The position numbers and the translations under genes were made by a program. Below, piece after piece: positions 1 through 64,000 of a DNA stretch of 64,000 nt (the first letter of the stretch is position 1; every line of letters starts with the position of its first letter). The stretch comes from a virus (lineage: Duplodnaviria > Heunggongvirae > Uroviricota > Caudoviricetes): IMG/VR virus record IMGVR_UViG_3300021387_000285; one strand, written 5' to 3'. The notes under the pieces were generated by a model. That model made no database searches. It had not been told where the DNA came from and saw only the letters and a program-made list of their open reading frames with translations.

Positions 1-1973
1 GGGCCATCACTAACCGCAATCAATAAGTCACCTATTTCACACACTTGACCTGCATAAGTTCCTGCATCAACAACTCTATAAGTCCAACCAGTTTGATAAC
101 TATTTGCTGGAACCGCAGTTGTTGTACCATGAGTTGCACCAAGTGTGCCTTTAAAAATTAAAGCATCATTAGCAGAAATTATATTATTCAATTCTGCTTT
201 TGTTGCATAAGTAGTTGTAATAACATTACCAGAAGCATCTTGAGTAGCTTTGGTAGCATTAGTTGCATTCACTGCATTGGCCGCATAACTTGCTGTCACT
301 GCAGCACCAGCCGTAGTTGCAGATGCAGCATAACTTGCTGTAATTGCATAAGCTGCACTATGAGCTTTAACTGCATTACTAGCAGTAATTGCCGCACTAG
401 CAGTAATCGCATAGGCTGCGCTATGTGCCTTGACTGCATTGCTTGCCGTCACAGCTGCGGTAGCAGTAACAGCATTAGCTGCATTCACAGCATTACCAGC
501 GGTAACCGCATAAGCTGCGCTACTTGCCAATGTAGCATTAGAAGCAGTGACTGCATATCCTGCAGTATCAGCCTAACCAACAATAGCTTTGCGTAATACA
601 TCAGCACTAATACTTCTTGCAGTGGTTGCAGTACCACCAGCTTGTTCAGCAGCTGTCATCTTTGCATAAGTTGTATTAGCATTATAATCAGCACGACGCC
701 ATTTCCCACCATAATAAGTGAATAAGATAGGAGTATTAGCAGCATAATGGGTAGTCAGCGCATCAGTGTTAGTTGTGTAACATTGAACTGCTCCTAATCC
801 ATTAATATTAAGAGTTACACTACCAGACTTACCAGCTACTTTTGGTACATACATAACTGTTAAACCATTATAATACTCAGTAATTTCATCTTGAGTACCA
901 GTCCAGACACCGGCCGCATCACTTGCGCTACCTTCAATATAAAAGAAAGTTTTACCATCGCTATAAGTGCTGCTTACAATATGACCAAAATTATCCAGAC
1001 TTAATGTTTTAATTATATTTTTATTATTAGCTTCTGGGTCTAATTCAGTTGTAATATCTGCGCTAGCAGGAGAATAATGACTAAAAGTAGTACCTGTTAA
1101 ATCAAGACCGTCCCCATTAGTATAAGTTGTATTACTGTTAATCCAAGGTACTAACACAGCTAACTTACCATTTTTATCAATTTCAACTGGATAAACATGA
1201 TTGGTTACATTAGCTTCATTTGTAGTTTGTGTTGTACTTAACAGACTAAGATTTACATTACTACCAGTAGTAGATAAACCTGCTCCAAAATTATAGGTAG
1301 TATCAGTAAACTTTGCGCCAGAAGGTACATCAGAATTAACTGTATGCCCATTAATTTTACCTACAAAGTTTTCAGCTGTAACAGCTCCAGTAGAAGGATT
1401 AGCATAAATCTTATTAGACCGATATGCTACATTATCTACAGTAGAAGTATTTGTCCCTTGCGTTGAGTAAGATAATAATACAGGATATTGAGCATTTGAT
1501 GCTGATAATACCTGTGAAACATTGGTATCTGTATTCACATTCTCATGTCCGACCCAAATCCAATTAGTCCCATCATACACGAATTGACAAACCATACCCG
1601 CGGTAATAGCATTAGCAGACGCTAAATTAGTTGTGCCATAACGCTTAATAGGCTTTGAACCAGTACCAGAAACATTTAATTCCAAACTTTCAGAACCAGC
1701 ACTATTGGTAAAGTTGAATTTAACAAAAACACTAACACCTACTGTTAAACCAAAACCATCAATATTAACCACTTTAATTGCGGTTCCTGCTGGCGTTGAA
1801 CATTCACCATAAAATGTCCCGTTTAATTGGCGTAATCCAGTCGCCGCATCTGTTGTATCAATATAGAACTTATTAGTATTCTTATCAAAATAACAAAATC
1901 CGGTTTTGTGGCTAGACAAAGCAGAAATAACATTTCCACTTTCAAAATTGTTTAAGATTTTAAAGAGTGCCAA
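1..1973 (-). CDS. Tail fibre protein, partial (C-terminus runs off the window start). TTG start at 1973. One in-frame TAG at 573-575 is read through. The distal part carries tandem ~20-aa Ala/Thr/Ser-rich repeats.
   Basis: Uninterrupted minus-strand frame 1973->1 if TAG is sense. RBS AAAGGGGAG sits 7 nt upstream of the TTG. The + strand ORF 240-596 is the antisense of the repeats. Confidence 0.6.
330..520 (-). repeat. In-frame tandem coding repeats of ~60 nt (AAYAITAS.. units) inside the tail-fibre gene.
   Basis: Near-identical 60-nt units are visible at about 335-395 and 395-455, with degenerate copies on both sides. Confidence 0.6.
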
Positions 1974-2067
1974 TCTTCAGCTCCCCTTTCTTTATATTTT
2001 TACTATCTCAAATAATGTAAATAAAGATTTAATTTATTTAATCTAATTCGTCCAATTAAAAAATGCC

Positions 2068-2096
2068 TTGATTTTTTAAAAAAATTATGATATAAT
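2068..2096 (+). promoter_or_regulatory. Sigma-A-type promoter, TTGATT-N17-TGaTATAAT.
   Basis: Matches the promoter family repeated through the window. It is followed by an AAAGGAG RBS. Confidence 0.6.
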
Positions 2097-2113
2097 TCTT
2101 ATAAAGAAAGGAG

Positions 2114-3109: not shown

Positions 3110-3535
3110 ATGAAGTTTGAATAGGTATCTACTTATCCTTATGCAAAACTGCCCGAACGTGCTACAGCAGGTTCCGCAGGCTATGACTTTTATTGTGCCG
3201 CGCATACTGTAGTCAATCCTCATAGTATTGCTTTAATTCCAACAGGAACAAAAGCACAGATTGATGATGGCTATTGGCTTATGCTCGCAATTCGTAGTTC
3301 TACTCCTAAAAAGAAATCTTTGATGCTCGCTAATGGTATTGGGGTTATTGATGCTGATTATTACGATAATCCAGATAACGAAGGACATATTATGTTCCAA
3401 GTTTATAATTTCTCTGATGAACCAGTAGCAGTATATAAAGATGATAAAATTGGGCAGGGTATTTTTATGCCTTACTCTACTACTGGTGATGTAGTGACTA
3501 CTGTGCGCGAAGGCGGCTTTGGTAGTACCTCTTGA
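3110..3535 (+). CDS. dut: dUTP diphosphatase (dUTPase) with 1 in-frame TAG at codon 5.
   Basis: MKFE(TAG)VSTYPYAKLPERATAGSAGYDFY...IGVIDADY.. carries trimeric-dUTPase motifs. It ends in TGA. Confidence 0.8.
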
Positions 3536-4014
3536 GACTATTAGCATTAGATTAGGCTAGTAGAACTTCAGGGTGGTCGGTATTTGATAACCAAACACTT
3601 ATAGACAGTGGAACATTTACATTAACACAAGATGATGTTGGTAAGCGTTTAGCGGCTTACCGCAAGAAAATTGAAAACTTAATTAATGAATATGATGTTG
3701 AAACAGTAGTCTTTGAAGATATTCAAATGTAGTCATAGATAAATAATGTATAGACATTTAAAGTATTAGCAGAGATATTTGGAGTAACTCAAGAATACTT
3801 AGCAGAACAAGGTTATGTTTATGAGATAATTAGTTCTAACACTTGGAAATCTTAGCTAGGTATTAAAGGACGTAAAAGAGAAGAATAGAAAAAGAATGCT
3901 CAAGAATATGTGCTTCAACATTATAATAAAAAAGTTAGCCAAGATGAAGCTGATGCAATTTGTATTGGTGCTTGCGCTGTGCTAAAAAATAACTCGGTCT
4001 TTAATTGGGAGTAA
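3532..4014 (+). CDS. RuvC-like Holliday-junction resolvase (phage type) with 6 in-frame TAG. TTG start overlaps the dut stop.
   Basis: Joined translation MRLLALDQASRTSGWSVF...VVFEDIQMQSQ...SQDEADAICIGAC matches the RuvC/YqgF catalytic motifs. Confidence 0.75.
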
Positions 4015-5275: not shown

Positions 5276-6607
5276 ATGATTATTCCTACTGGTGATAGAT
5301 AGTATAGTGATTGGTTAATTGAATTATATAATGAATAGTTACAAATATTTCCAAATAAAGAAATGTTAGTGCCATCTATTACATTTCAAGTAACAGATAA
5401 TTGTAATTTAAGATGCAGCTATTGTTATCAAATTAATAAGGGTAATCATAGAATGCCTTTCTCAATTGCTAAAGATTTTATTGATTTATTAATAGAAAAT
5501 AATGAAAAAACTAAACAATATATTGATACAAAAAATACCTTAGGAGTTGTACTTGATTTTATTGGAGGAGAACCTTTTTTAGAAATAGAATTAATTGATT
5601 AGATTTTAGAATATTTTTAGAAAGCCACCATTGAAGCTAATCATCCTTGGTAGTATCATTGGAAAGCTAGTTTTTCATCTAATGGAACTCTTTATTTTAA
5701 TCCAGAAGTTTAGCATTTTTTAAAAAAATATTTAGATAAAATAGGATTAAGTATCACTATTGATGGAAATAAATAGTTACATGATAGTTGTCGTAAATTT
5801 CCAGATGGCTCAGGTAGTTATGATTTAGCCATTGCGGCCGTTAAACATTATACCAATGAATTACATGGAAGAATGGGAAGTAAAATAACATTAGCTCCAG
5901 AAAATATTCAATATACTTTTGAAGCTATAAAAGAATTTATTGAATTTGGATATACTGATATTCATGGTAATTGTGTTTATGAAAAAGGTTGGGAATTAAA
6001 ACATGCTAAAATTTTTTATCAATAGTTAAAACAATTAGCAGATTATATTATTAACAACGATTTAGAAGAAAAAATATATTGTTCTTTATTTGTTCCTCAT
6101 TTTTTCCATCCAAAACCTTTAGATGATACACAAAATTGGTGTGGAGGGAATGGAAGAATGGTAGCTTTAGATTATAAAGGAGATATTTATCCTTGTATTA
6201 GATATATGGAATCTTCTTTAGGTCCTACTATTAAGCCTATCATTATTGGGAATGTTAGTAAAGGATTTTTATATACTCCAGAACAAATTGAATGTGTGAC
6301 TTGTTTAAAAAATATCAATAGATTAAATCAATCTACAGAAGAATGTATTAATTGCTCTATTGCTGAAGGATGTTCATGGTGCCAAGGATATAACTATCAA
6401 GATAGTGGAGATTTTAATCATAGAGCAACTTATATCTGTATAATGCATTAGGCAAGAGCATTAGCAAATGCTTATTATTGGAATAAATGTTATATAAAAC
6501 ATAATGATAAAGAGCGCATGCATTTATATTTAGAAGATGAAAAAGCTTTATAGATTATTTCATTAGAAGAATTAAATAAAATAAAAAAAGCAGAAATCAT
6601 ATTATAA
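5276..6607 (+). CDS. Radical SAM/SPASM-domain enzyme of the anaerobic sulfatase-maturase-like family with 10 in-frame TAG.
   Basis: CNLRCSYC (Cx3Cx2C) motif. The segment IDGNKQLHDSCRKFPDGSGSYD is anSME-like. A C-terminal SPASM cysteine cluster CVTC...CINCSIAEGCSWC is present. Track ORFs 5363-5602 and 6158-6451 are fragments of this gene. Confidence 0.85.
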
Positions 6608-7222: not shown

Positions 7223-8125
7223 TTAAGTTGTTCGTAAATCACCAGTACATTTTCCTGCACAACTTCCTCCACAAGCCCCTGTACATCCTAAACAAGTACC
7301 ATGACAAGTACCTACACATCCACTTGAACAAGACCCTTTGCATCCTCCAGAACATGGAGTACAAGTACCTTTACAAGTACTCATACATCCTTCTTCACAC
7401 TAGGTATCACACTAACCACTACATGTAAACGTACAATCATTCTTACAATAATCTTTACAAGTACCACCACAGCCATTAGTACAATCACTACCACAACCAC
7501 TACTGCATGCATTTCCACATCCACTACATCCATCATTACAACCACTACTACATGCATCTCCACAACCAGTACAAGTTCCAGTACAGCCTAAACAAGTCAT
7601 ATTACAAACCCAATTACAGTCATCTTGGCATGCATATGTGCAACCTGTTGCACAACTTCCAGTACATCCAGTACACCCAGAACATCCACCAGTGCATCCA
7701 GTACATCCTAAACAAGTACCTTTACAATCTCCAGTACAGCCAGAACAAGTACTTGTACAATCTCCAGTACAACTCGTACATAAACCAGTACAAGAACTAT
7801 TACAAGCAGAATTATTTGTTTCTCCACTTGGCTAACGATATGGTCGCGATGCATAATCATTATTGGCTATCTATAATTTAATTAGTGCTTTAATAATATC
7901 ATACTAAGCAACTTCTGAATAGTCTGTTATACTAGTATTTATCTAATTTAAAGGATGTATTAAATTATTCCAAATATTAGGGATAATTTCATCTTCTTTA
8001 ATAGCATTTATTGTATTATCAAAGGTAAAAGTATATTTATCTCGTCTCTATAACTCAGTATTTATAGCAGCTCGTAAATCATTTATTTCACTTGCTACTA
8101 TTTTATCATATTGATTTAATCCCAT
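7223..8125 (-). CDS. Cysteine-repeat (CXXX/CXX) protein, 300 aa, with 6 in-frame TAG. It has an N-terminal ~100-aa Cys-free domain and a C-terminal ~200 aa of C-x2-3-C repeats (about 50 Cys).
   Basis: ATG at 8125 with a GGAAAGGAG RBS. The translation ..CTGLCTSCTGDCTSTCSGCTGDCKGTCLGCTGC.. runs to TAA at 7223-7225. Track ORFs 7412-7600(-), 7381-7563(-) and 7507-7881(+) are fragments or antisense of it. Confidence 0.7.
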
Positions 8126-11230: not shown

Positions 11231-11983
11231 ATGCCAGTACATGATGCATTAGGTACACGAATGAAAGAGTACGAATCTAGGAATCAGTATTATCTTCAAA
11301 AACGTACTCCAGTAGCAATACGTATTGATGGTCGCGCATTTCATTCATTTACTAAAGAACTTAACAGACCATTTGATAATGTTTTTCAAACATCTATGAT
11401 TCAAACAATGGAAACACTTTGCGGGGAAGTTCAGAATTGTATTTTTGGGTATACGCAATCTGATGAAATTACTTTAATTTTAAAAGATTATAATCAATTA
11501 AATACTTCGGCATGGTTTGATTATAGGACAGATAAATTATGTAGTATTTCTGCTAGTTTAGCAACATATTATTTTAATAAATATTTTAAAGAAAATGCAG
11601 AAAAAGTTATTTGGGCCAATCCAAATAATAGTTATTCATCAACTCTTGCTAAATGCTTGAATAAACCTGCTATTTTTGATGCCCGTTGTTTTAATATTCC
11701 AAAAGAAGAAGTAGTTAATCTTATCTATTGGAGACAGTTAGATGCGGTCCGCAATTCAATTCTCTCATGCGGTCAAGCAGAATTTTCTCACAAAGAGCTT
11801 ATGAATAAATCTTGTAAAGAGATTAAAACAATGCTTGAAGATATCGGCAAATCTTGGGATAAAATTCCTATCCACAAGCAGCGTGGAACCGCATGTACAA
11901 GAGTTGAAGGAACTTGGATTACTGATTATGCGATGCCTATTCTTCTTAAAGAAGATAGAGCTTATTTGGAAGAATTGATTTAA
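11231..11983 (+). CDS. Thg1-like protein (tRNA-His guanylyltransferase family, 3'-5' polymerase). TAG-free.
   Basis: IRIDGRAFHSF, GYTQSDEITLIL and YWRQLDAV match Thg1 motifs VRLDGRNFHRF, AYGQSDEYSFVF and SWRQADCH. Confidence 0.8.
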   Translation: MPVHDALGTRMKEYESRNQYYLQKRTPVAIRIDGRAFHSFTKELNRPFDNVFQTSMIQTMETLCGEVQNCIFGYTQSDEITLILKDYNQLNTSAWFDYRTDKLCSISASLATYYFNKYFKENAEKVIWANPNNSYSSTLAKCLNKPAIFDARCFNIPKEEVVNLIYWRQLDAVRNSILSCGQAEFSHKELMNKSCKEIKTMLEDIGKSWDKIPIHKQRGTACTRVEGTWITDYAMPILLKEDRAYLEELI

Positions 11984-12438
11984 TGGAAAAATACAAAGAT
12001 TTAGTTCATTACGATCGTGACAAAGAAGAATATTATATTGATTATCCTATAGGAAATCAAACATTTCACATGGGTTTTCAAAAGTGTGAAGTTGATTCTT
12101 TTATTGATAATGGAACAGTATATTTTAATGTTTGGATAAATCTATATAATAAACGTAAAGACATGTGGCGTAATGAAGATTTACTTTTATCTACTGGATT
12201 GAACCCAATTAAAACAGTTCTTGTTGCGCGAGAATGTTTTAAAGCAATTGAAGCAGAAATTATTGAAGATATGGAATATAATAATAAAGATGTAATTATT
12301 TATTGCCATTGGGTAAATAATCGTAGACGAGATGCTTATTATAAAGTTCTCTCACGAATGGGATATAGATATGGAAGAATCCCATTGCATCCTTATAAGG
12401 TAATTATGAAGAGGTATAAAAATAATGAAAATAAATGA
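11983..12438 (+). CDS. Hypothetical protein.
   Basis: ORF from the track with an ATG/TAA overlap to the upstream gene. Confidence 0.4.
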   Translation: MEKYKDLVHYDRDKEEYYIDYPIGNQTFHMGFQKCEVDSFIDNGTVYFNVWINLYNKRKDMWRNEDLLLSTGLNPIKTVLVARECFKAIEAEIIEDMEYNNKDVIIYCHWVNNRRRDAYYKVLSRMGYRYGRIPLHPYKVIMKRYKNNENK

Positions 12439-12775
12439 TCTTTTAATTGAAGATATAGCATGGACTTTAAGAAATTTTACTGCTAAAATCATAGATTGGG
12501 AAGAAACATCTTTTTGGGAACGTGACTATAATGAAGACCCCTATAAACAAGCTGCTCATGCTATGCTAATTACTACTAAAATTGGTTATGGTGATTGTTA
12601 TCCTATTGATACTTTTATTGAAAATGTAAAAACAGGTAATTTTATTGACTATGATGGAAGTGGTTTTTGGGTTGACTCTGAAGGTAATAAAATTAATCCA
12701 ATTATATGTGATGCAAACTGGTTAAAACAAAATAAACCAGAAAATGCTAGATTTATAATGTGGTATAACAAATGA
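12425..12775 (+). CDS. Hypothetical protein.
   Basis: ORF from the track. Confidence 0.4.
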   Translation: MKINDLLIEDIAWTLRNFTAKIIDWEETSFWERDYNEDPYKQAAHAMLITTKIGYGDCYPIDTFIENVKTGNFIDYDGSGFWVDSEGNKINPIICDANWLKQNKPENARFIMWYNK

Positions 12776-13005
12776 TTTTATGTAATAAAAAATGTATCCC
12801 TTGCTGTGATTATTGTATATATGTTATTCATGATGAATGGGACGAATATGTGGATTATTGGGTAAATCCTAAACATGTAGTAGGTGGTCCCATTTGGTGT
12901 AAATTACATCAAGATAAAAAACATCAAGAAATTGCTAAAAGTTGTGGTAGTTGTGATGATTTTCATTGTTGTAATGCAAAAGAAGAAAGTTGGTATATTG
13001 TATGA
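12772..13005 (+). CDS. Cys-rich putative zinc-binding small protein.
   Basis: Multiple CxxC pairs. Confidence 0.4.
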   Translation: MILCNKKCIPCCDYCIYVIHDEWDEYVDYWVNPKHVVGGPIWCKLHQDKKHQEIAKSCGSCDDFHCCNAKEESWYIV

Positions 13006-13196
13006 CAGAGTTAGATGGTTTTATAAGTAGAATAAATCTTAATGGAAAAACTTATGGTTTAAAATGTGAAGTCGTTGAAGCGCGACCTATTACTTGTAAA
13101 AAGTGTGGGGCTTCTTTTTAGCTTCATTATGGAGAAGGACGATGTGAACATTGTGGTACATATTATACTACACACTTTTATATTGAGGAAAAATAA
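13002..13196 (+). CDS. Zinc-ribbon small protein with 1 in-frame TAG.
   Basis: CKKCG...CEHCG. ATGA and TAATG overlaps with its neighbours. Confidence 0.4.
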
Positions 13197-13399: not shown

Positions 13400-13436
13400 T
13401 AATGAATAAAAAATATAGTTGGAGTAGTAATATAAT

Positions 13437-14894: not shown

Positions 14895-14899
14895 AAAAA

Positions 14900-19957: not shown

Positions 19958-19963
19958 TATAAA

Positions 19964-50713: not shown

Positions 50714-50714
50714 T

Positions 50715-50913: not shown

Positions 50914-50947
50914 TAATAAAGAAAAATAGCGAAAAGGAGTTTTTAGT

Positions 50948-53900
50948 TTGATAGATACATTTTTTGATGTGCATGCACATACAGAATATAGTAATATTAG
51001 GTTAATAGATTGTATAAATCATCCTAAGGACTTAATAAACAGAGCAATAGAAGTAGGGCTAAGTGGATGTAGTATAACAGACCACGAGGCTCTATGTTCG
51101 CATATAATTGTAAATAAATATGCGAAAGAAATTAAAGAAAAGTATCCTGATTTCACGATTGCATTAGGAAATGAGATATATTTAACAGAGACAAGAGATA
51201 GAGGACAAAAATATTATCATTTTATTTTATTAGCAAAAGATAGATTGGGATATAAAGGATTATGTGAATTATCTTCAACAGCTTGGTATAATGTTTATAC
51301 AGACAGGCGTCTTGAAAGAGTTCCAACTTTGAAAAGTGAACTTAAAGAGATAATGAAGAAATATAAAGGTCATATAATTGCAACTACCGCATGTATGGGC
51401 GGTGAATTATCAACAAATCTTTATGGATTGGCATTAGCAAGAAAAGAACAAGATAAAGAAAAAGAATTAGAATATTATAATAATGCTTGTGAGTTTATAA
51501 ACTTTTGTGTTGATGTATTTGGAAAAGAAGATTTCTATATAGAATGCGCGCCAAGTACAAAAGCAGACCAAGTATTAGTAAATAAACAATTATTAAATGT
51601 TGCTCATGCTTTTGGTTTAAAGATGGTTGTAGGAACTGATGCTCATTATTTAAAAAAAGAAGATAGGTATGTTCATAAATCATATCTTAATTCTAAACAA
51701 GAAGAACGTGAAGTTGATGATTTCTATGAATATGCTTATATGCAGTCGCCAGATGAAGTAAGAGAGCATCTGAGCGCCGCAATGAGTGATAGAGATATTG
51801 ATTGGATATTTGAAAACTCATTAGAAGTAAAAAAGAAAATAGATTTTTATAGTTTAGAGAAACATCAGCATATTCCAGAAGTAGCAGTAAAAAATTATCA
51901 AAAAGGTAAAAACTTTGATGTTGGTAATCGTACGGTCTTAAATGAATTATTTGAAAGTGATAATGTTCAAGAAAGATATTGGGTTAATCAATGTTGTGAA
52001 GCATTGATAAATAAAGGTATTGGATTAAAAGATAAATATCTTGACAGATTAGAAGAAGAAGCACGAGTTAAAAAAGTAATTGGTGAAAAACTTGAAACTT
52101 GTATGTTTGCATATCCTAATACTTTGCAGCATTATATTGATTTGTTTTGGCGATGCGGCAGTACGGTCGGCGCGGGACGTGGTTCCGCATGTTCTGGTTT
52201 AAATCATTATCTTTTGGGTGTAACTCAACTTGACCCGATTGAATGGTCATTACCATTCTGGAGATATCTTAATGATGAACGTGTTGAGTTAGGTGATATT
52301 GACCTTGATTTGGCACCGAGTAAACTTCCAAAGATATTTGAAGAAATTAGAAAAGAACGTGGAGAACTTGGAATAGTTCAAGTATGTACTTTTGGAACAG
52401 AGGCAACAAAATCAGCAGTATTGACAGCATGTCGTGGATATAGAAGTGAAGATTATCCAGATGGAATTGATGTTGATGATGCACAGTATATATCTTCGTT
52501 GGTTCCACAAGAGAGAGGATTTTTATGGGATTTACATGATATGATTGAAGGTAATCCTGATAAAGGCCGTATGCCGCAAAAACAATTTATTAATGCAGTT
52601 AATCAATATCCTGGATTATTAGATATTATGAGGGGTATTGAAGGTCTAGTGTCTCGTAGAGGTATTCATGCTTCTGGTGTTATTTTATTTGATGAAGATA
52701 TTTTTGATGAAGCAGCAATTATGCGAGCCAGAAATGGTAATTTAACAACTCAATGGGATTTGCATGACCAAGAAGCCGCAGGTAGTGTAAAATATGACTT
52801 TTTGTTAACAGCGGTTCAAGATATTATTATTGAGACAATTGATTTGTTACAGGCAGATGAAGTAATTGACCCAAAACTTTCATTAAGAGAAGTTTATGAT
52901 AAATATCTGCATCCAAATGTTCTTCCAAAAGACGATAAGAAAATGTGGGATGCACTTGCGGCCGGCAGTGTATTAGGAGTATTTCAGTTTGAAGGTTCTG
53001 TTGGTGCGCAAGCAGCAAAAAAGATTCGTCCGCAATCTCCATTGGAAATGGCAGACGCGAATGGATTGATGCGTTTGATGGCGAGCGAGCAAGGGGCAGA
53101 AATGCCATTGGATAAATATGTAAGATATAAAAATAATATCTCATTATGGTATAAAGAGATGGAAAGATGTGGTTTAACAGAAGATGAACAAAAAGTAGTT
53201 GAGCCATATTTTAAATCATCATATGGAGTTCCACCAAGTCAAGAACAATTAATGAGAATGTTAATGGATGAACATATTTGCGGTTTTTCATTAGCAGAAG
53301 CAAATGCAGCTCGTAAGATTGTTGGTAAGAAACAAATGTCAAAGATTCCAGGATTGAAACAGAAAGTATTAGAGAGCGCAACTTCAAAAAATCTTGGAGA
53401 ATATATTTGGAAATATGGCGCAGGACCGCAGATGGGTTATTCGTTTAGTATTATTCATGCGTTGGCATATTCATTCATTGGTATGCAAACTTTGTATTTA
53501 GGAACTCATTTTAATCCAGTCTATTGGAATACAGCATATTTAATTGTAAATAGTGGTGCATTAGATAGTGGAGAAGATGAAGATAACGATAAACAAGATG
53601 GAACAAATTATACAAAGTTAGCAAAAGCGATAGGGCAGATTAGGGCAGCAGGTATTCAAGTAAGTTTGGCAGATATAAACCGAAGCGAGTTTGGATTTGT
53701 CCCTGACCCAGAGAATAATCAAATCTTGTTTGGTATGAAAGGTATGTTAAATGTTGGTGATGATGTAATTGAAGAAATTATTTCAAATCGCCCATATGTA
53801 TCACCACGAGATTTTGTAAATAAAGTAAAACCAAAGAAGAATGTAATGATGTCTCTTATTAAAGGTGGAGCTTTTGATAAGATGATGGATAGAAAAGAAT

Positions 53901-54835
53901 GCATGGCTTGGTATATTTGGGAGACCTGTGATAAAAAACAAAAAGTGAATCTTCAAAATATGGCAGGTTTAATGCAATATAAATTAGTTCCAGAAGATAC
54001 AGAAGAGCGAATAATGGCGCGACGCATATATGAGTTTAATAGATATTTAAAAGCAATTACAATTAGTGCAAATAAATTAAAACCATATTATGTTTTAGAT
54101 GAGCGCGCAATGTCATTCTTAATAGATATTCAACAAGAACAATTGATTTGTCAAAATGGTAATATATATTGTATTTTAAAAACAGACTGGGATAAAATAT
54201 ATCAAAAATGGATGGATGTATTTAGAACTTGGATGACAGAAAATCAACAATATATTTTACATGAATATAATAAATTGATATTCTTAAATGATTGGAATAA
54301 ATATGCAAAAGGAACAATTTCAGCTTGGGAAATGGAAGCATTATGTTTTTATTATCATGAGCATGAATTAAGTAATATAAATAATAATCAATATGGGTTT
54401 GTTAATTTTTATGATTTACCAACAGACCCAGAGATAGATAGAAGTTTCACAAAAAATGGTAAAACAATTAACTTATATAAATTATATAAGATTTGCGGGA
54501 CTTGTATTGCAAAGAATAAAAATAAAAGTACAGTTAGTTTATTAACAACAAATGGTGTTGTTGATGTTAAGTTTAGAAAAGAGTATTTCGCTTTGTTTGA
54601 TAAACAAATATCAGCAAGGGGAGATGATGGGAAAAAACATATTGTTGAAAAATCTTGGTTTAATCGTGGAAGTATGATTATTGTTCAAGGAATTAGATGT
54701 GATGATATGTTCGTAGCGAAAAAATATGCATCAAGTGGCGGGCATCAGTTATATAAAATTGATGAAGTAATTGATAATGAAATTAAAATTAGAACCACAA
54801 GAGCACAAGGAGATATGGAAGATGAAGACGATTAA
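50948..54835 (+). CDS. dnaE: DNA polymerase III alpha subunit (DnaE-type, N-terminal PHP domain), 1295 aa. TAG-free.
   Basis: PHP motifs FFDVHAHTEYS and ..TDHEAL.. then the Pol III alpha core. A single uninterrupted ORF. Confidence 0.85.
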   Translation: MIDTFFDVHAHTEYSNIRLIDCINHPKDLINRAIEVGLSGCSITDHEALCSHIIVNKYAKEIKEKYPDFTIALGNEIYLTETRDRGQKYYHFILLAKDRLGYKGLCELSSTAWYNVYTDRRLERVPTLKSELKEIMKKYKGHIIATTACMGGELSTNLYGLALARKEQDKEKELEYYNNACEFINFCVDVFGKEDFYIECAPSTKADQVLVNKQLLNVAHAFGLKMVVGTDAHYLKKEDRYVHKSYLNSKQEEREVDDFYEYAYMQSPDEVREHLSAAMSDRDIDWIFENSLEVKKKIDFYSLEKHQHIPEVAVKNYQKGKNFDVGNRTVLNELFESDNVQERYWVNQCCEALINKGIGLKDKYLDRLEEEARVKKVIGEKLETCMFAYPNTLQHYIDLFWRCGSTVGAGRGSACSGLNHYLLGVTQLDPIEWSLPFWRYLNDERVELGDIDLDLAPSKLPKIFEEIRKERGELGIVQVCTFGTEATKSAVLTACRGYRSEDYPDGIDVDDAQYISSLVPQERGFLWDLHDMIEGNPDKGRMPQKQFINAVNQYPGLLDIMRGIEGLVSRRGIHASGVILFDEDIFDEAAIMRARNGNLTTQWDLHDQEAAGSVKYDFLLTAVQDIIIETIDLLQADEVIDPKLSLREVYDKYLHPNVLPKDDKKMWDALAAGSVLGVFQFEGSVGAQAAKKIRPQSPLEMADANGLMRLMASEQGAEMPLDKYVRYKNNISLWYKEMERCGLTEDEQKVVEPYFKSSYGVPPSQEQLMRMLMDEHICGFSLAEANAARKIVGKKQMSKIPGLKQKVLESATSKNLGEYIWKYGAGPQMGYSFSIIHALAYSFIGMQTLYLGTHFNPVYWNTAYLIVNSGALDSGEDEDNDKQDGTNYTKLAKAIGQIRAAGIQVSLADINRSEFGFVPDPENNQILFGMKGMLNVGDDVIEEIISNRPYVSPRDFVNKVKPKKNVMMSLIKGGAFDKMMDRKECMAWYIWETCDKKQKVNLQNMAGLMQYKLVPEDTEERIMARRIYEFNRYLKAITISANKLKPYYVLDERAMSFLIDIQQEQLICQNGNIYCILKTDWDKIYQKWMDVFRTWMTENQQYILHEYNKLIFLNDWNKYAKGTISAWEMEALCFYYHEHELSNINNNQYGFVNFYDLPTDPEIDRSFTKNGKTINLYKLYKICGTCIAKNKNKSTVSLLTTNGVVDVKFRKEYFALFDKQISARGDDGKKHIVEKSWFNRGSMIIVQGIRCDDMFVAKKYASSGGHQLYKIDEVIDNEIKIRTTRAQGDMEDEDD

Positions 54836-55242: not shown

Positions 55243-55836
55243 ATGAATGATTATAATATTATTGCGATAATGGGAAAAGCTGGTTCTGGAAAAGATACTC
55301 TATTAAAAGCTTTACTTCAAGAATTGACTTTTACTAATATTGCGCGACCTATTATTAGTTGTACGACTCGTCCTATTAGAGAAGGAGAAGTTGATGGAGT
55401 TGATTACCATTATCTTACAAAAGAACAATTTACTGATTAGGTTCTTAATGGAGATATGTTAGAAGCAACAGTTTTTAATAGCTGGTGTTATGGTACATCT
55501 TTAACTAATCTTTCATAGAACCATTTAAATATTGGAGTATTTAATCCAGAAGGCGTAGAAATACTTCGTGATAATAACCATATAAATCTATTTGTAATTT
55601 ATATACAAGCAGATGATAAAACAAGATTATTAAGATAGCTGAATAGAGAAGGTAATCCAGACTGTCATGAAATAGTTAGACGATTTGGAACTGACGAAAC
55701 AGATTTTAATGATGAAGTAATAGATTATATTCAACCTGACTTATATGTAGCCAATGGTGATGGTGTAGATATACATAATATCGCTAAATAGATTGCGGCC
55801 GCATGGGAGTCAGGGCAAATCTCATTAAAAAAATAA
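55243..55836 (+). CDS. gmk: Guanylate kinase with 4 in-frame TAG.
   Basis: GKAGSGKDTL and TTRPIREGEVDGVDYHYL. The track ORF is only the first 65 codons. Confidence 0.7.
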
Positions 55837-55902: not shown

Positions 55903-58152
55903 ATGACAATTATTAAACGAGATGGAACAGCAGTTCCATTTGATTGTAATAAGATTATAAGTGCAATAAATAAAGCATTTAAAGAAGTTGATGGAGAAGT
56001 ATTTGAAAATGATACCGCAACTGATATAGCTTTAGAGATTAGTCATAAAGTTGATAACAGTCCTGTGGCAGTAACGGTAGAAACGATATAGGATTGGGTA
56101 GAACAATATCTAATGCGCTCTGAGCGTCCAGATGTAGCAAGAGCTTATATTAGATATAGATATAGAAAAGAAGTTGCAAGAGATTTTTAGAGTGACTTTA
56201 TTGATACAATTATTGAAAAATTAGAAGCAGATGATGTTCAAAATCAAAATGCTAATGTTGATGAGCATTCATTTGGCGGGCGCACAGGTGAAGCCAGCAG
56301 TGTAATGACTAAAAAATTAGCATTGGAACATTTAGTATCTCCAATGGCAAGAGCAAACCATGAAAATAATGAAATCTATATTCATGATTTAGATGCATAT
56401 TATGTTGGCTCTCATAACTGTTTGAGTATTCCTTTTGATGAATTACTTGCTAATGGATTCAATACCAGATAGACAGATGTGCGGCCGGCCGGTTCTGTGA
56501 ATACTGCATGTCAGTTAACTGCTGTTATTTTTCAACTTTAGTCTTTACAACAGTTCGGTGGAGTAAGTGCGACTCATATAGATTGGACAATGGTTCCCTA
56601 TATCCGTAAAAGTTTTTATAAACACTTTAAAGATGGAGTCCACTATATTGAAAATAAAATAATTGACAGTCTTTCAAGTGATGTAGATAGTAAAAATATA
56701 TCTATTGACAGTGATTTTTATAAAGATTTAAATTGCCCTAGAGCCTATGATTATGCTATGGATATGACAGAAAAAGAAACTCATTAGGCAGTAGAAGGTC
56801 TTTATCATAACCTTAATACTTTACAAAGTCGTTCTGGTAACTAGTTACCTTTTACATCTTTAAATTATGGTACCTGTACTCTTCCAGAAGGAAGAATGTT
56901 TACTCAAGCACTCTTGGATGTAAGCATTGAAGGACTTGGTAAAATCCATAAAACTAGTATTTTCCCATGTGGGATTTTCCAGTATATGAAAGGTGTAAAT
57001 AATAAACCTGGTACACCCAACTATGATTTATATCAACTAGCATTACAAAGCACTGCTAAAAGGTTATATCCAAATTATGCTAATGTAGATTGGTCTGGAA
57101 ATGCAGGATATGATAGAAATGACCCTTGCACTTATTTTTCAACCATGGGTTGTAGAACGGTCAATGGGGCAGACATTAATGCAAATCCAGGAGTCAATCC
57201 TCAGCGTAAAGATGGCCGTGGTAATATATGTCCTGTAACTATTATTCTTCCTACACTTGCCATGGAAGCTGTATAGAATATAGACGATGATGAATATGCT
57301 AATGGAAAAGAAAGTATTATTAATGCTTTCATGGAGCTTTTGGATAAAAAAATCTATGAAGCAAGAGATATGCTTCTTGAGAGATTTGATTGGATTTGTT
57401 CTCAATCTCCAGCCAGTGCAAAATTTATGTATGAAAATAATACAATGAGTGGGTATATTCCAGAAGAAGGAATATATAGTGCGCTCAAGCATGGTACTCT
57501 TGTTATTGGACAATTAGGCTTAGCAGAAGCATTACAGATTTTAATTGGCTGCGACCATACAACTGAAAAAGGTATGGAACTTGCAAAGAGAATTGAGCAG
57601 TTATTTAAAGATAGATGCGCTCAATTTAAACAGGAAGAACATTTAAACTTTGGTGTTTATTATACGCCTGCTGAAAACCTTTGTTATACAGCATTAAAGA
57701 AGTTTAGAGATAAATATGGAGTTATTAAAAACGTGAGTGATAAAGAATTCTTTACAAATAGCATGCATGTACCTGTATGGAAGAAACTTTCTCCTTTTGA
57801 TAAAATTGATATTGAGAGTCAATTAACGGGATATAGCAATGCTGGATGCATTACTTATGTTGAATTAGAAAGTTCTGTTCGTAATAATTTAACTGCTTTG
57901 GAACAAATTGTTAACTATGCTATGGACCATGATATTCCATATTTTGCTGTTAATGTTCCTAATGATACTTGCTTGGATTGCGGTTTTACTGGTGAGTTTA
58001 ATGGCAAATGTCCTATTTGCGGCAGCACCCATATCCAGCAATTACGTAGAGTAACTGGTTATTTAACTGGTGACTATACATCAGCATTTAATTTAGGAAA
58101 ACAAGATGAGGTACATCATCGTGTAAAACATACTGGAGATTTAGAGCAATAA
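55903..58152 (+). CDS. nrdD: Anaerobic ribonucleoside-triphosphate reductase (class III, NrdD) with 7 in-frame TAG.
   Basis: N-terminal ATP cone, C-terminal Zn site CLDCG...CPICG and a glycyl-radical RVTGYL. Joins four track ORFs in one frame. Confidence 0.8.
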
Positions 58153-58168: not shown

Positions 58169-58654
58169 ATGAGATACGCAGGTATTATTCGTAATGATAT
58201 CTCTGCTGGTGAAGGAGTATGCGTCACATTCTTTTTACAAGGATGTGACCTCCATTGCCCCGGTTGTCATAATCAACAAACTTGGGATTTTAATGGTGGT
58301 TATGAGTTTACTCAAGAGACATTAGATAATATAATAAATGCTTTATCTGCTAATGGCGTTCAACGTAATTTTTGTATTATGGGTGGAGAGCCATTACATG
58401 AAAATAATTTATTTTTAACTAATTTAGTAATTACAGAAGTTAAAAAACATTATCCTGATATTAAGATTTACTTATGGACAGGATATAAATATGAACAATT
58501 AATTGACAAATAGGAAAAATTATTGTAGAATATATTAAAGAATATAAATGTTTTAGTTGATGGGCCTTTTATTTTAGAACAAAGAGATATCACTTTACCA
58601 ATGAGAGGTTCTAAGAATCAACGTGTTATAGTGTTAAAGGAGAATGATAAATGA
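58169..58654 (+). CDS. nrdG: Anaerobic RNR activating enzyme (NrdG, radical SAM) with 2 in-frame TAG.
   Basis: CVTFFLQGCDLHCPGCHN cluster. Confidence 0.75.
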
Positions 58655-59022
58655 TTATTACTTTATGTGGCAGCACAAGATTTAAAAATGAATTTGAAAT
58701 GGCAAATAAAACTTTAACAATGTAGGGACATATTGTTCTTGCTCCTGGTATTTTTCATCATGCAGATGGTGATGAATTAACTACTGAAGATAAAATTAGA
58801 TTAGACAATTTACATAAACAGAAAATCAATATGAGTGATGCTATCTTTGTAATCAATCAAGATGGTTATATTGGTGAAAGCACATTCGGTGAAATTGACT
58901 GGGCGCAGCGTATGGATAAAAAGATTTTCTTTTTGATTGATCCAGAGAAGGAGAATAATGATACTTCTGCTCCAGATGTTGAGCCAGTGGTAAATAGTGA
59001 GGAAGAGGAAAGTGCCGAGTAA
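58651..59022 (+). CDS. Nucleoside 2-deoxyribosyltransferase-like superfamily (DUF4406-like) protein with 1 in-frame TAG.
   Basis: LCGSTRF...DGYIGESTFGEIDWA (catalytic-Glu-like motif). ATGA overlap with nrdG. Confidence 0.4.
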
Positions 59023-59038
59023 CACTAATGAAGATTTA

Positions 59039-59734
59039 ATGTTTAATTTTGATTGTCTAAATAATAAAATGTAGGCAATCAATAAAATGAATTAGATTAC
59101 AAAAGCAGAAGCATTAAATCAAATGGAAATTGTAAAATAGGATAAATTACTCCCATTATGCGAAGGCTTCACTGTTGATAATGAAGATGAAGAAGATGAT
59201 TGCGATACTTTAATATGCGAGTAGTATTGGCCTGGGATATATTATCTTAGTGAAGATGGAGAAATCCCTATTCCTTTACCATTATATCACCCAGATTGCG
59301 AATGCTTTATTACTCCTTTTGGAGGTCAATTAATGCCAATAGATAATCATGGTATTGTATCTGAAGCATTATATCAATTATAGTTAGAAATAAAAACTAT
59401 TCAAGAAAAATATTTAGAATCTATAACGTCTAAATTAATTAATTACTATAATTTTGTTAAAGAAACAAAACCAGAATTATTAACAGACAAAGATAAATGG
59501 ATGAAAGATAACCATGATATAGATATTTATAATAAATGGCATGATAATGTTAAAGAAGATATTTTAGATTTATTAAATGATATGATGGAAGAAGTTTATA
59601 GCACTACTTCTTCAGAGCTTAGAACAATTTATGGAGATTATGATTATCCTGTAAGTAAAATTGCTTTTTATGATAAAGATGGAAAAACAATAGAAGAACG
59701 TTTAGACCGCTGGTTTAATTTTTACAAAGAGTAA
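59039..59734 (+). CDS. Hypothetical protein with 5 in-frame TAG.
   Basis: Frame is open from the ATG at 59039 to the TAA. The track ORF 59501-59734 is its tail. Confidence 0.35.
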
Positions 59735-59748
59735 AAGGAGTAACATAT

Positions 59749-60270
59749 ATGAAAATATATTTAGCTGGCCCAATTTTCTTTTATGGTGATTATTTAAGAA
59801 ATATTGAATGGGCAAATAAAATTAGGCAAGCATTTCCTGATGCTTATGTTTATAGCCCAGTAGAAAATACTGATATAAATGGTGTAGAAGGAAAGAAGAA
59901 GTTTGCCGGTTCATAGGAGATTGCTAATGGTGATAACATTCGGTTAGACAATACTGATGTGCTTATCGCTTGTATTGATGGGGATGTTCTTCCTTCTGGC
60001 ACGTGCGCTGAAGTGGGAAAATTCCACGAAAAAATAGCAAGGGGAGACAATAAGTATATTATTGGTGTTTGTACTGATACTCGTCAGTGCTTTAATACTC
60101 ATAGCGATGCAAAAGATAGAGGAGGTGCCGCAAGTCTCGGCGAGCAGCAATACTCTTATTAGAATCTCTATGTCACTGGCTTAATCAAACAAGCAGGCGT
60201 ATTAGTAAGTGATATTGATGAAGTTATCAAAGTATTAAGAAAAGTCTACGATACTTACGATAATGATTAA
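59749..60270 (+). CDS. Nucleoside 2-deoxyribosyltransferase (NDT family) with 2 in-frame TAG.
   Basis: MKIYLAGPIFF is the NDT family signature. AAAGGAG RBS upstream. Confidence 0.65.
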
Positions 60271-60466
60271 TATTTTAAAAGTTGATACTAATAAGATAGA
60301 TACAGATACAACATATAAAGTAGCTACACAATTACGTAAAGTCCTTAATGAAGAAGACGTTGTTCTAGTTCTACCTTATGGTATAGATGTATTATTAGAT
60401 GTTCCAATAGAAGAAATAATTTCTATTAGAGATAATTTAAATGAAATTATCAAATCAAGGAGTTAA
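60263..60466 (+). CDS. Hypothetical small protein.
   Basis: ORF from the track. Confidence 0.35.
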   Translation: MINILKVDTNKIDTDTTYKVATQLRKVLNEEDVVLVLPYGIDVLLDVPIEEIISIRDNLNEIIKSRS

Positions 60467-60473
60467 AATAAAA

Positions 60474-61733
60474 ATGATTTATAATATAAATGACAGATTG
60501 CCTTTTGGTAAATTAGTTTCATTCTCAGTACAATTGATGTTATCTGTTTTTGTAGCAACAGTTTTAATTGCAAATATTTGCGGTGTCGCGGTTAGTGGAG
60601 CACTGGTTGGTGCAGGACTTTCCACCATTTGTTATCTCTTAATTACTGGTTTTAAGTCTCCTATGTTTATCTCAAACAGCGGAGCATTTGTTGCGCCAGT
60701 AATGGCCGCGTTGGCTTTAGGCGGTTATACTGCAGTTGCTATTGGTGGACTTGTGACTTGTGTAATTTATAGTTTATTTGGAATTATTTTTACTCGCATT
60801 CCAGTAGATAAGATATACAAAGTTTTCCCACCTGCGCTCATTGGTGCCGTAACTGTAGTTATTGGTGTTAACTTAATGCCATTTATTCTTAGTTATGTGC
60901 AGATTGCAGGAGTAACTAGTCAATGGGGCATTATAGTTGCGCTGATTACTATGCTTGCAATTGCGCTTATTAGCCACTATGCTAAAGGGATGCTAAAGAT
61001 TCTCCCATTTTTACTTGGAACTTTAGTTGGATATGTAGTTGCTATTATCCTTACAGTTAGTGGCGTATATGAAATAGTTGATTTTTCCGTTTTTAAGGAT
61101 TTAAAATTATTTATCGTCCCAGACTTCGCATTTCTACATTGGACTTCTGTGCAGCTCTCTACAATTCTTCCAGTTATAATTATGTACATAGCATACACAA
61201 TTTCTGCAATGATGGAATGTTTATCTGACCATGCTGCTTTAGGAGGAATTATTGGTGTAGACTTATACAGAAATCCTGGCTTAGGAAGAATCTTTATTGG
61301 AGAAGGGTTTGCCAACTTAGTAGGTTCAGTATTCGGCGGGCTTGGTGAATGTTCCTATGGAGAAGGGGTAGCCTGTGTAGGATTTAGCAAAGTAGCTTCA
61401 ACCTTTGTCACCGTAGGTGCCGCAATTATCCTTATCCTCTTAGGATTTCTCGCTCCGGTTCAAGCTTTTATCGCATCAATTCCAAGTTGTGTATTCGCAG
61501 GTGCCGCTATCATATTATACGGTTTCATCGCTTGTAGTGGAATAAAGATGCTGCAAAAAACTGATTTAAATATCCAAAAGAACTTAATTATTGTATCTTC
61601 TGTTCTTTCTCTTGGTATTAGTGGTCTTGTAGTCGGCGGTACAACAATTAGTTTCTCAGCAACAGCACTTGCCTTAATCGTGGGAATTATTTTAAATATC
61701 TGTTTGCGTGATAAAAGCGTAAAAAATGGTTGA
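60474..61733 (+). CDS. NCS2-family nucleobase (uracil/xanthine-type) permease. TAG-free.
   Basis: About 12 TM helices. QLMLSVFVATVLIA resembles the NCS2 QHxxAMFGATV signature. Confidence 0.65.
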   Translation: MIYNINDRLPFGKLVSFSVQLMLSVFVATVLIANICGVAVSGALVGAGLSTICYLLITGFKSPMFISNSGAFVAPVMAALALGGYTAVAIGGLVTCVIYSLFGIIFTRIPVDKIYKVFPPALIGAVTVVIGVNLMPFILSYVQIAGVTSQWGIIVALITMLAIALISHYAKGMLKILPFLLGTLVGYVVAIILTVSGVYEIVDFSVFKDLKLFIVPDFAFLHWTSVQLSTILPVIIMYIAYTISAMMECLSDHAALGGIIGVDLYRNPGLGRIFIGEGFANLVGSVFGGLGECSYGEGVACVGFSKVASTFVTVGAAIILILLGFLAPVQAFIASIPSCVFAGAAIILYGFIACSGIKMLQKTDLNIQKNLIIVSSVLSLGISGLVVGGTTISFSATALALIVGIILNICLRDKSVKNG

Positions 61734-61830
61734 AACTTGGCGGACGCAAGAACTCCTCCGGCCGCTGGGGGATGTCTCAACCGAAATCCAAAATAAAAAA
61801 TCCGTTGGGTATTTTTTAACCAAAAACAAG

Positions 61831-61877
61831 AAAAAAGGGTTAGACTTATAAAAAGTCTAACCCTTTATTTTATTTTA
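61831..61877. terminator. Bidirectional hairpin terminator.
   Basis: AAGGGTTAGACT..AGTCTAACCCTT stem with A6 upstream and a T-run downstream. Confidence 0.7.
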
Positions 61878-64000
61878 CCTTAATCCAAATACGTCCGTCA
61901 ACCTAAACATTGTCACTACCCCATTCTGTATAGTCAGGTATTTCACTAACAATACCTACTATACAATCTGGATAGTCTTTAATTTCTTCTCGGGACATAA
62001 TATCAACTGTCCCGCCTGGGGCAGTACAGACTGCCATCCCAGCATGATATTCCTTTCTATTTTTGTATGGGTATACCAATACTCGTCCCGCCACGGCCAA
62101 TGGTGTCTTACACTCATTCGTTTCGCCCATGCAAGTACCAAAAGTATCTGATATAACCTATGCGCCTGGCATCAAACGTTCATTAGCAATTGTTAAAGAA
62201 CCATCATCATTATCAACAACGCAGAAACCTGGTTTAGCATCAATAGTTTTGCGGTATTCAGCATAATCATTAAATACAGCATTATATACTTTACGAGACT
62301 AGAAGTCTACAGTATCTCCTTCACCACTGATGTTGTAAGTTCTAATTCTAGTATTAGTACCATCATAATAAAAACCAGCAGAACTATTTGGAGACATTTC
62401 TGGATATCCTCTTAAAGCTAAATATGTGCTTGCGATAACTGCGCCACCATTCGCAAAGATATGCCCATTACTGGTAACAATACTACCAGCTTGCGCTATA
62501 CTGCCTAATAAGTTTAAGCTAACATTATCTTGCGTCCAACCTTGTGCATTAGGAGAAATCTCCAAAGGTCCTGTCATAGTGTCGCCTGCAATTTTTACAT
62601 ACTTATCACTAATCTTTACTTTTGGATTTTTAGTTTTTTCACTATCATCATAAACAGCATATTGTGCTGTGATATTAAATGTATCGCCAGAACCACTAGT
62701 TAATCCCTTAATAGGAACATCATAAGTATGCCCATTAGTTGTTACCCTAAATGTACCAGTGGCCTGCACATTATTTGGATTAACTTCAGTCAAATTATTA
62801 CCATTAGAATCAGTAAATTTAATACTACTACCAACTTTAACATATTTATAACCGACCATTGTTTTATCAGTTCCACCAGCCATAGGCTCAATGCCAGTTC
62901 CAGTAGAGTTTAATTTATATTCTCCTGTGGCAATCTTTTTAATCCAATCATTCCACGTTTCAATGTTAGCTTTTAATGTAGTAATTTGAGAAGTTAAACT
63001 AACAGATTGATTAATTAAACTCCTCTTCGCTAATAAGGCTGCATCTCTTTTAGCTAAAGCTGCATTAACAACAAGATTTAAATAAGCAGTAACATATTGC
63101 TAGATAGTAATAATATCAGCTGCTGCAGCTACAGTATCAGATTGTTCATACTCTGGATAATTTGTAACTGAGTCTTCTAATTGTATTAAAGCTTGATGTT
63201 CTTCTGGAGTTAAATAACCAGTAGAACGTAATGCAGCAATTAATTCAGAACGTTCTCTTAAAATAGGAACAAAGATAGCATAATGTTTATAAATTTTTTC
63301 ATTCTCTAAATCTTCTGTCCATTTAGCAGCAGTAGAATAAGTATATTCATTATATACATTACCATTTTTAGTATAGTATGTAATACGATTATCATATTCT
63401 TCAAGTCTATTAACAATTAAATAATTGTTCTAGGCAACATTCTTCCATTGTTCTTCAAAGACTGCATATACATGGTTAGGCTCAGGAGACCACCAACTAC
63501 CACTTAAGCTTTGGCCTAAACCATATTTTAAATCATCAACTAATTGGCCTAATGCCATAATAGCATCTCTATCATTCATAGCATCGGCGCTAATACTGCC
63601 ACCATAGGCATCTAACACTGCGCGCCTGCTTTGATAGATTTCATTATTTACTTCATAAACTTTATTCCAATGGGATACTCTATTTTGATAATCGGCAATT
63701 GTGTTTGTTTTTGTAATAATTGCCTTTTTTGCTTCATTAATTCTAACTTTTAATGATTCAGCAAAAATGATATTACCTTTTAGTGTTTCGCTATCACCAT
63801 ATGTTATTTTAATACAAGGAGACCCATCTGTATAATCTTCCCAAATAGGTAAGTCTGTACTGATATCACGCTCATCTTCTTGTATATATTCTATATCTGT
63901 AATAGGATAATTTTTTATGTTAGTTAATAATGATTGTAATGTTGCTTTCTACAACACTACATTATCTACATATCTAGAATCAGATAACATAAACTTTCTC
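61870..64000 (-). CDS. Tail fibre protein with at least 5 in-frame TAG. Its N-terminus lies at or beyond the window end.
   Basis: A single minus frame joins track ORFs 63430-63618, 62299-62883 and 61903-62130. It carries the GDTMTGPL tail-fibre motif and a Cys-containing C-terminal domain. A candidate ATG lies at 63989. Confidence 0.6.

Follow-up and report, generated by a model that had tools for sequence, protein, structure and literature searches.

Borges et al. (10.1101/2021.08.26.457843) described recoded phages of the crAss-like, Lak, Jade, Sapphire, Agate, Garnet, Amethyst and Topaz clades, in which early genes keep the standard code, late and lysis genes are recoded, the replication machinery is variably recoded and an intron endonuclease within an early region is heavily recoded. 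For crAss-like phages, a further report gives proteomic proof that the amber codon TAG is read as glutamine (Gln) (PMC9523058), and code 15 has also been reported for rumen jumbo phages (PMC13037316) and for viral genomes in VIRE/SPIRE (PMC12807717). Here, we analyze a stretch of 64,000 nucleotides of phage DNA (IMG/VR record IMGVR_UViG_3300021387_000285, Caudoviricetes; positions 1 to 64,000), referred to below as the window, for which a first-pass annotation had proposed that TAG is a sense codon, most likely for Gln. The window is part of an uncultivated tailed phage of ~196 kb, and the study codes in the names of matching scaffolds (Shi W 2014, Wilkinson 2020) point to the sheep rumen as its origin.

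The phage is a classic example of a TAG-to-Gln recoded phage, a code change that is already well described, and the likeness to code-15 gut phages drawn in the first-pass annotation is apt. It shares with the phages of Borges et al. the Gln assignment, the density gain under code 15, a low GC content and a preference for TAA as a stop, as well as standard-code replication genes, recoded lysis and presumed structural genes and the arrangement of several such modules along a genome of ~200 kb. A homing-endonuclease-like GIY-YIG gene is likewise heavily recoded inside an early region, and recoding has spread to different degrees among close relatives. Unlike in those phages, neither a suppressor tRNA nor a “code change module” was seen ahead of the lysis cassette in the window, and the phage also recodes nucleotide-metabolism, recombination and RiPP-like genes; its presumed source, the sheep rumen, is a further difference. 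With the rumen jumbo phages and the VIRE/SPIRE genomes it has in common the habitat, the data source (including a SPIRE-style scaffold name) and the way recoding is detected, by a gain in density, but with its ~196 kb it is slightly too small to count as a jumbo phage (cut-off 200 kb). The DnaE polymerase is 38–40% identical over 99% of its length to that of Enterococcus phages VRE9, EF1 and EF5 (~140 kb) and of the Bacillus SPbeta group, which, unlike the phage studied here, use the standard code, and there is no similarity to them at the nucleotide level.

The known mechanism is unchanged by these results, and the recoding is already handled automatically in the public protein set. What the window offers is a well-resolved rumen example of how phages of standard-code hosts use the amber-to-Gln switch unevenly across gene classes. 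It also illustrates a practical point: standard-code gene callers fragment such a genome and lose NrdD, PhoH, the endolysin and other proteins, while code-aware callers cope.

TAG as a Sense Codon

Greedy, non-overlapping gene calls were made under code 11, with TAG as sense and with TGA as sense (code 4). Code 11 yielded 107 genes with a coding density of 0.774 and a mean length of 156 aa, and 37 of these 107 calls ended in TAG. Reading TAG as sense reduced the set to 89 genes and raised the density to 0.951 and the mean length to 229 aa, the outcome anticipated when the first-pass annotation proposed comparing the two codes; TGA as sense gave a density of 0.786, that is, no gain. A total of 143 in-frame TAG codons are distributed over 45 of the 89 genes, with at least two in 25 genes and at least three in 20. 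The earlier estimate of at least 35 genes interrupted only by TAG is therefore reasonable, with some of the small single-TAG open reading frames (ORFs) remaining uncertain members of the count.

Genes are interrupted by TAG only, never by TAA or TGA, and Pfam and NCBIfam profiles continue in frame across the TAGs of NrdD, PIN-PhoH, the radical SAM enzyme, the endolysin, RecJ, RuvC, guanylate kinase (Gmk), dUTPase, NrdG, Ndt, the GIY-YIG gene and GyrA. Full-length homologs fused from code-11 fragments, as described in the first-pass annotation, were accordingly found, except that the two genes labeled there as tail fibers (3–1973 and 61870–63999) lack Pfam and PHROG support. All code-15 calls have TAA (61) or TGA (27) as their stop. 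That both codons still terminate had been noted earlier, with dnaE ending in TAA and dut in TGA, and both examples hold; ligA, given there as ending in TAA, ends in TGA. TAG is a sense codon, and TAA and TGA are the sole terminators.

Glutamine at TAG Positions

Database homologs are a treacherous standard for this question: they are partly pre-translated with TAG as Q, NrdD entries of 99% identity carry Q at every TAG, and the underlying genes of the scaffold and its relatives fail to yield the query protein when read with table 11. For this reason, the comparison was made at the codon level. Aligning window TAGs with the DNA of relatives gave 390 aligned positions, at which the relatives carry TAG in 125 cases and CAA or CAG in 126, followed by Lys (23), Glu (21) and fewer of other residues. 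In the reverse direction, 130 of 391 TAGs of the relatives face Gln codons in the window. The commonest change is TAG to CAA, which takes two base changes, and one-step neighbors such as TAT are almost absent, which argues for synonymy rather than mutational proximity.

The cleanest control came from two loci (L014 and L078) of one 132-kb IMG/VR contig, a relative with no TAG in ~45 kb, either in frame or as a stop. Against L014, 15 of 28 window TAGs (54%) face CAA or CAG; the window's own CAA/CAG codons face Gln in 45% of cases, and the background share of Gln among the relative's residues is 3.6%.

In 25 PhoH homologs without in-frame TAG, Gln occupies the positions of TAG codons 233, 356 and 385 in all 25, of 368 in 24 and of 306 in 23, and over all 14 TAG positions pooled 149 of 349 residues (43%) are Gln. 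All five near-invariant Gln sites are encoded by TAG, and the six remaining CAA/CAG codons of the gene lie at variable sites at which 9% of homolog residues are Gln. One of the PhoH TAGs had been highlighted in the first-pass annotation as replacing the Gln of a conserved motif, and this codon is present in the DNA as described (GAT GGT GAT GAA AAA ACA TAG GTA GAT GAT). So is its second example, IFYQ-TAG-LKQL of the radical SAM enzyme. The same residue appears in solved structures of proteins from organisms with the standard code: PhoH of Corynebacterium (PDB 3b85) has Gln at X233, X356 and X385, and the NrdD structures 8p23 and 9d3x have Gln at X63, X295 and X314 (all three in 8p23). Five NrdD TAG sites carry Q in all 111 more distant database homologs, from the collection that is partly pre-translated; in the DNA of relatives, all nine have CAA or CAG at codons 213, 295 and 314, whereas at codons 63 and 190 seven have CAA or CAG and two have TAG.

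The amino acid composition points the same way, with TAG-rich genes having an abnormally low Gln content of 0.7–1.4% that reaches a normal 3–4.6% once their TAGs are added to the Gln codons. The base immediately after a sense TAG showed no bias relative to other Gln codons, nor was there any sequence-context bias around sense TAGs. Tabulating the residue opposite each TAG, the check suggested at the outset, thus leaves Gln dominant in the relatives' DNA (126 of 390 as CAA/CAG against 23 Lys and 21 Glu), in the TAG-free relative, in PhoH and in the PDB structures, and on this comparative evidence TAG is shown to correspond to Gln in this phage.

Distribution of TAG across Genes and Relatives

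Overall, TAG accounts for 18% of Gln-type codons, and for up to 70–78% in some genes. Its use per gene is strongly heterogeneous (chi-square 242, 85 degrees of freedom, p = 5e-17). The carriers belong to the lysis, nucleotide-metabolism, recombination, RiPP-like and presumed structural classes, and all 12 of the 12 minus-strand genes carry TAG.

Genes free of TAG are concentrated on the plus strand. A block of ~30 plus-strand genes (11231–25693) is nearly devoid of it, the exceptions being three single-TAG ORFs on the plus strand and one minus-strand ORF with three TAGs (23257–23499). Most replication genes also lack TAG: GyrB (31220–33151) has no TAG among 11 Gln codons, the NAD-dependent DNA ligase LigA (36978–38909) has none, the AAA_24 ATPase, DnaB helicase and primase (42384–47009) are all TAG-free, with a 226-aa gene bearing two TAGs in the same stretch, and an SF1 helicase together with DnaE (49469–54835) shows none among 68 Gln codons, 52 of which belong to DnaE. 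Embedded among these TAG-free replication genes, near ligA and gyrA, are two heavily recoded genes with 12 and 9 TAGs. One encodes the GIY-YIG endonuclease-like protein (39555–40706, plus strand, 12 TAGs), whose surroundings are mostly TAG-free; the other (35786–36859, minus strand) lies between gyrA and ligA and encodes a protein of PHROG family phrog_17509, of unknown function, with 9 TAGs making up 75% of its Gln-type codons. In the GIY-YIG protein, the domain is C-terminal, behind a long coiled-coil-like N-terminal part.

The relatives place the window within a graded series of recoding. L014 carries no TAG; L022 and L025 carry it in a few genes only, including RuvC with 6 and 4 TAGs, respectively; the window phage uses it in roughly half of its genes; and in L019 it reaches even DnaE and DnaB. 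DnaE, TAG-free in the window, contains 6, 6 and 3 TAGs in L019, L012 and L013, and DnaB, also TAG-free in the window, contains 9 and 2 in L019 and L013. The mosaic pattern of TAG use is genuine and is conserved among relatives. Such relatives, from TAG-free to almost fully recoded, form a usable comparative set, and the series would make it possible to reconstruct which genes take up a new sense codon first and which later.

Proposed Decoding Mechanism and Alternative Explanations

The reading that best accounts for these observations, to which we assign a probability of about 0.9, combines TAG as Gln and TAA and TGA as stops with an uneven use of TAG that would reflect the order of translation. 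TAG-free genes would be translated first by the unmodified standard-code machinery of the host. The phage would then supply an amber-suppressor tRNA(CUA) charged as Gln, possibly together with interference against release factor 1 (RF1), and TAG-containing genes would be completed only after suppression, so that the code change would also time the late functions. We infer this timing, as well as the suppressor tRNA and any manipulation of release factors, along the lines proposed for other code-15 phages.

Candidate decoding machinery was sought with ARAGORN (standard, relaxed and intron modes) and with Rfam at the gathering threshold and at E <= 1, in the window, in ~11 kb of same-scaffold flanks (with the window, ~38% of the genome) and in ~90 loci of relatives. 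Several results weigh against the proposed scheme. The window contains no tRNA that these searches could find, in line with the first-pass annotation, and neither do the ~11 kb of flanks or ~0.7 Mb of close-relative loci. Domains of release factor 2 (RF2), glutaminyl- or glutamyl-tRNA synthetase (GlnRS/GluRS) and GatCAB were absent from the scanned window proteins and from the precomputed Pfam lists of the flanks. Expression timing is read from gene function only. In other phages, NrdD/NrdG, Gmk, dUTPase and RecJ often belong to the early or middle class; here they carry TAG, which makes a simple early/late split imperfect. Finally, L019 carries TAG even in DnaE and DnaB.

Additional searches extended the negative result. 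A search with a chimeric query of two giant flank proteins returned three distant proteins only, and the locus reached contained no tRNA; ~30 kb along the 239-kb IMG/VR relative (L019, L028, L029 and L042) comprise a long TAG-rich structural module without a tRNA; and a search with a phrog_16490 protein led to a single 46-kb contig, again without one. Scanning IMG/VR with a PhoH profile recovered 80 loci and revealed that many PIN-PhoH phages are TAG-recoded. One of them, a distant TAG-recoded phage on an 83.8-kb contig with 43% GC (L086), has a tRNA(CUA) ~9 kb from phoH, adjacent to a tRNA-Leu(UAA) (20354–20524 of the locus). This tRNA has a U1/C72 mismatch, G2-C71, G3-C70 and G73, features that we take to be Gln-like from the identity elements of tRNA-Gln. 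The sister contig of L086 (L084) contains no tRNA at the corresponding place. L086 illustrates the machinery to be expected; it lies outside the clade studied here and says nothing direct about the window phage.

The source of suppression is the one point with a live alternative. TAG could be read as Gln in a phage without a suppressor tRNA of its own, either through a suppressor of the host or of a co-resident element or through inactivation of RF1 combined with near-cognate reading by host tRNA-Gln. In its favor is the lack of a tRNA in every searched locus of the phage and its close relatives. The search, however, covered ~38% of the genome; in large phages the tRNA genes usually sit together in a single place, which may simply lie outside the region read. 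Genes with 10–14 TAGs, such as PhoH, would moreover need near-complete suppression, and we know of no case in which leaky near-cognate reading achieves this. Elsewhere, suppressor tRNAs were detected in only 40% of TAG-recoded genomes (Borges et al., 10.1101/2021.08.26.457843) and in 61% of alternatively coded jumbo phages, for which host or competing-phage tRNAs were raised as a possibility (PMC13037316). On balance, we consider a phage without its own suppressor unlikely. A host that itself uses TAG for Gln, with the phage simply matching it, is very improbable: about half of the genes avoid TAG fully, among them those of an uninterrupted 15-kb block and of the replisome, a pattern that a matched host would not select, and to our knowledge no bacterium uses code 15. 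Nothing direct speaks for such a host, the nearest precedent being the code-matching phages of code 25 hosts, in which ~90% of genes carry in-frame TGA against 26–71% in phages of standard-code hosts (Borges et al., 10.1101/2021.08.26.457843).

Two further explanations concern the codon itself. Pyrrolysine, Trp, Tyr, Glu or Lys might be inserted instead of Gln; homologs do favor Glu, Lys, Thr or Tyr at a few sites (NrdD X96 and X458, PhoH X158 and X232), and ARAGORN labels CUA tRNAs “Pyl” by default. Against this stand the five- to six-fold excess of Gln over any other partner, its invariance at catalytic-motif sites, the match between TAG and bona fide CAA/CAG codons in the comparison with L014, the absence of pyrrolysine synthesis genes among those seen, and a gene content of bacterial-phage type (DnaE, NAD-dependent ligase, peptidoglycan-binding endolysin), so that we see very little room for another amino acid. 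The notion that the TAGs are real stops in pseudogenes, split genes or assembly errors draws on the fragmented code-11 ORF track, with 37 of 107 calls ending in TAG. It is refuted by the codon-substitution pattern, in which relatives and independent samples either keep TAG or have CAA/CAG in its place, and its probability is negligible. Only TAG interrupts genes, domain profiles run in frame across it, one essential-looking enzyme would have to tolerate 14 stops, and the density of 0.951 is reached only with TAG as sense.

TAG Codons Preceding Terminators

Three otherwise TAG-free genes (30161–30625, 16350–16970 and 50715–50906) have their sole TAG 1–3 codons before TAA, with the ending TAG GAA (0–2 codons) TAA; 0.69 such genes were expected (p ~0.03). 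The first of them encodes RNase H (30161–30625, plus strand; Pfam RNase_H on an orthologue), and its TAG, three codons before TAA, falls exactly where the L009/L010 orthologue has its true stop. By this alignment, the RNase H TAG is a former or still-used TAG terminator. Near-stop TAGs in general could be fossils of former terminators or terminators still working early in infection. A time-dependent double meaning, whereby TAG would stop the three genes early and TAA would act as a back-up after suppression, taken together with the graded recoding series of the clade, is a tentative proposal that we hold to be possible, if doubtful.

Gene Content of the Window

Among the TAG-bearing genes, the PIN-PhoH (YlaK-like) NTPase (26933–28228, plus strand) has 14 TAGs (70% of its Gln-type codons) and matches to PIN_4 and PhoH (2–194/205). 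Next to it lies the endolysin (28275–29666, plus strand; 5 TAGs), composed of PG_binding_1, ELLD (2.4e-57) and SH3_3 domains. The nucleotide-metabolism genes, all on the plus strand, include Gmk (55243–55836; 4 TAGs, Pfam match), the anaerobic ribonucleotide reductase NrdD (55903–58152; 7 TAGs), with NRDD (2–562/562), ATP-cone and Gly_radical matches running across the TAGs, and the region 58169–60270, which holds the NrdG activase (2 TAGs), two small genes (1 and 5 TAGs) and the nucleoside 2-deoxyribosyltransferase Ndt (2 TAGs). In the recombination class, the RecJ-like exonuclease (47326–49095, plus strand; DHH and RecJ_OB) has three TAGs, all of which face TAG, CAA or CAG in most relatives, and the RuvC-like resolvase (3532–4014, plus strand; Pfam RuvC 2–147/148) has six, which face TAG or CAA/CAG in relatives.

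The dUTPase gene (3110–3535, plus strand; Pfam dUTPase) contains one TAG and stops at TGA. In L006 (10225–11473) and L007 (10225–11474), dUTPase is in two pieces of 85 and 47 aa, split by an HNH_3 endonuclease gene. This arrangement suggests a mobile intron or an intein-like insertion, which the window copy lacks.

A radical SAM peptide maturase of the family that targets CXXX repeats (5276–6607, plus strand) carries 10 TAGs, which alternate with CAA/CAG among relatives; it matches TIGR04115 with 442 bits (cutoff 350) as well as Radical_SAM and Fer4_12. A nearby minus-strand gene (7223–8125) encodes a Cys-rich protein of 300 aa with 7 TAGs (78% of its Gln-type codons) and tandem repeats at 7491–7793. 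CXXX repeats fill the C-terminal ~200 residues of this protein (CTGLCTSCTGDCTSTCSGC...), and its match to TIGR04117 is weak and below the cutoff (E = 0.004). The protein is probably the substrate of the maturase, and the two look like a phage-encoded pair. Both genes are heavily TAG-recoded in the window, and the pair is conserved in L005, L007 and L011. A full-text literature search returned no paper describing a phage pair of maturase and CXXX-repeat substrate.

The nearly TAG-free block at 11231–25693 encodes a Thg1-like 3'-5' nucleotidyltransferase, a RlaP-family nucleotidyltransferase, two Metallophos proteins, two phrog_547 phosphoesterases, a DRB0094-type ATP-dependent RNA ligase with a PHA02142 OB domain, an AAA_33 kinase, and HNH, SPFH and GT2 proteins. 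Judged by these domains, it looks like an RNA or tRNA repair set, and orthologues of the repair genes are also TAG-free in L006 and L009. The block may counter host defenses that cleave tRNA; a link to the maturation of a suppressor tRNA would be pure speculation.

The GyrA-like subunit (33138–35492, plus strand) has a DNA_topoisoIV domain (25–454), and five GyrA_C repeats. Its only TAG, codon 470, falls within the linker that joins the core to the beta-pinwheel repeats of the C-terminal domain. The codon is ACT in L009 and hence not conserved. If TAG terminated early in infection, GyrA without its C-terminal domain would be made first.

Both ends of the window cut through minus-strand genes. 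One, at 3–1973, encodes an Ala/Thr/Asn-rich repeat protein with one TAG, possibly fiber-like; the other, at 61870–63999, encodes a large late protein with 6 TAGs and no family match, also possibly fiber-like. The fiber label comes in both cases only from composition and from neighboring Laminin_G_3 giant proteins outside the window. The xanthine/uracil permease (60441–61733, plus strand) is TAG-free in the window and has 2–4 TAGs in its orthologues in L008, L012 and L019. As a membrane transporter, it is an unusual auxiliary gene for a phage. A scan of bacterial genome contigs, made for a hint of the host, gave as its best match a protein of 36% identity in an uncultured Eubacteriales metagenome-assembled genome.

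Genome Context and Related Contigs

The window has a GC content of 31.6% and is 100% identical to parts of the ENA scaffold SHIW14-1_SAMN02144231-S010_METAG-scaffold_46 (195,902 bp; ERZ28612944), the proteins of which are already translated with TAG as Gln in the public set. Near-identical copies (97–100% protein identity) with conserved TAGs occur in contigs of other samples (L005–L007); contigs of 193,398 and 176,465 bp are among the near-identical copies of the scaffold. Farther syntenic relatives were found in ENA (L008, on a 343-kb contig, and L009) and in IMG/VR (L012–L027, including contigs of 239, 182, 175 and 132 kb). Megablast of the window against GenBank phages gave no match, Rfam at the gathering threshold found no family in the window, and no terminase gene was present in the window or in any locus fetched. 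By these searches, neither cultured phages nor GenBank include a close relative of the lineage. A low-GC bacterium of the Bacillota is the probable host, as suggested by the cultured phages nearest in DnaE and by an endolysin with peptidoglycan-binding and SH3 domains.

Where the window and the ENA scaffold seem to differ by 155 nt, the scaffold has a 100-N gap, which the window closes (~58886–58940); two other assemblies also break at ~58940. Both ends of the scaffold fall inside the window, at ~22065 and ~23106, flanking the GT2 glycosyltransferase gene (22225–23235). Since the window spans both ends and closes the gap, the phage genome is probably circular or circularly permuted, with a size of about 196–197 kb, and the window represents a more complete version of it than the public scaffold. 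An STnc40-like Rfam match near the scaffold-end region (22065–23106) is weak (E = 0.26) and probably due to chance, and a 51-bp tandem repeat lies at 22999–23103, close to the same region.

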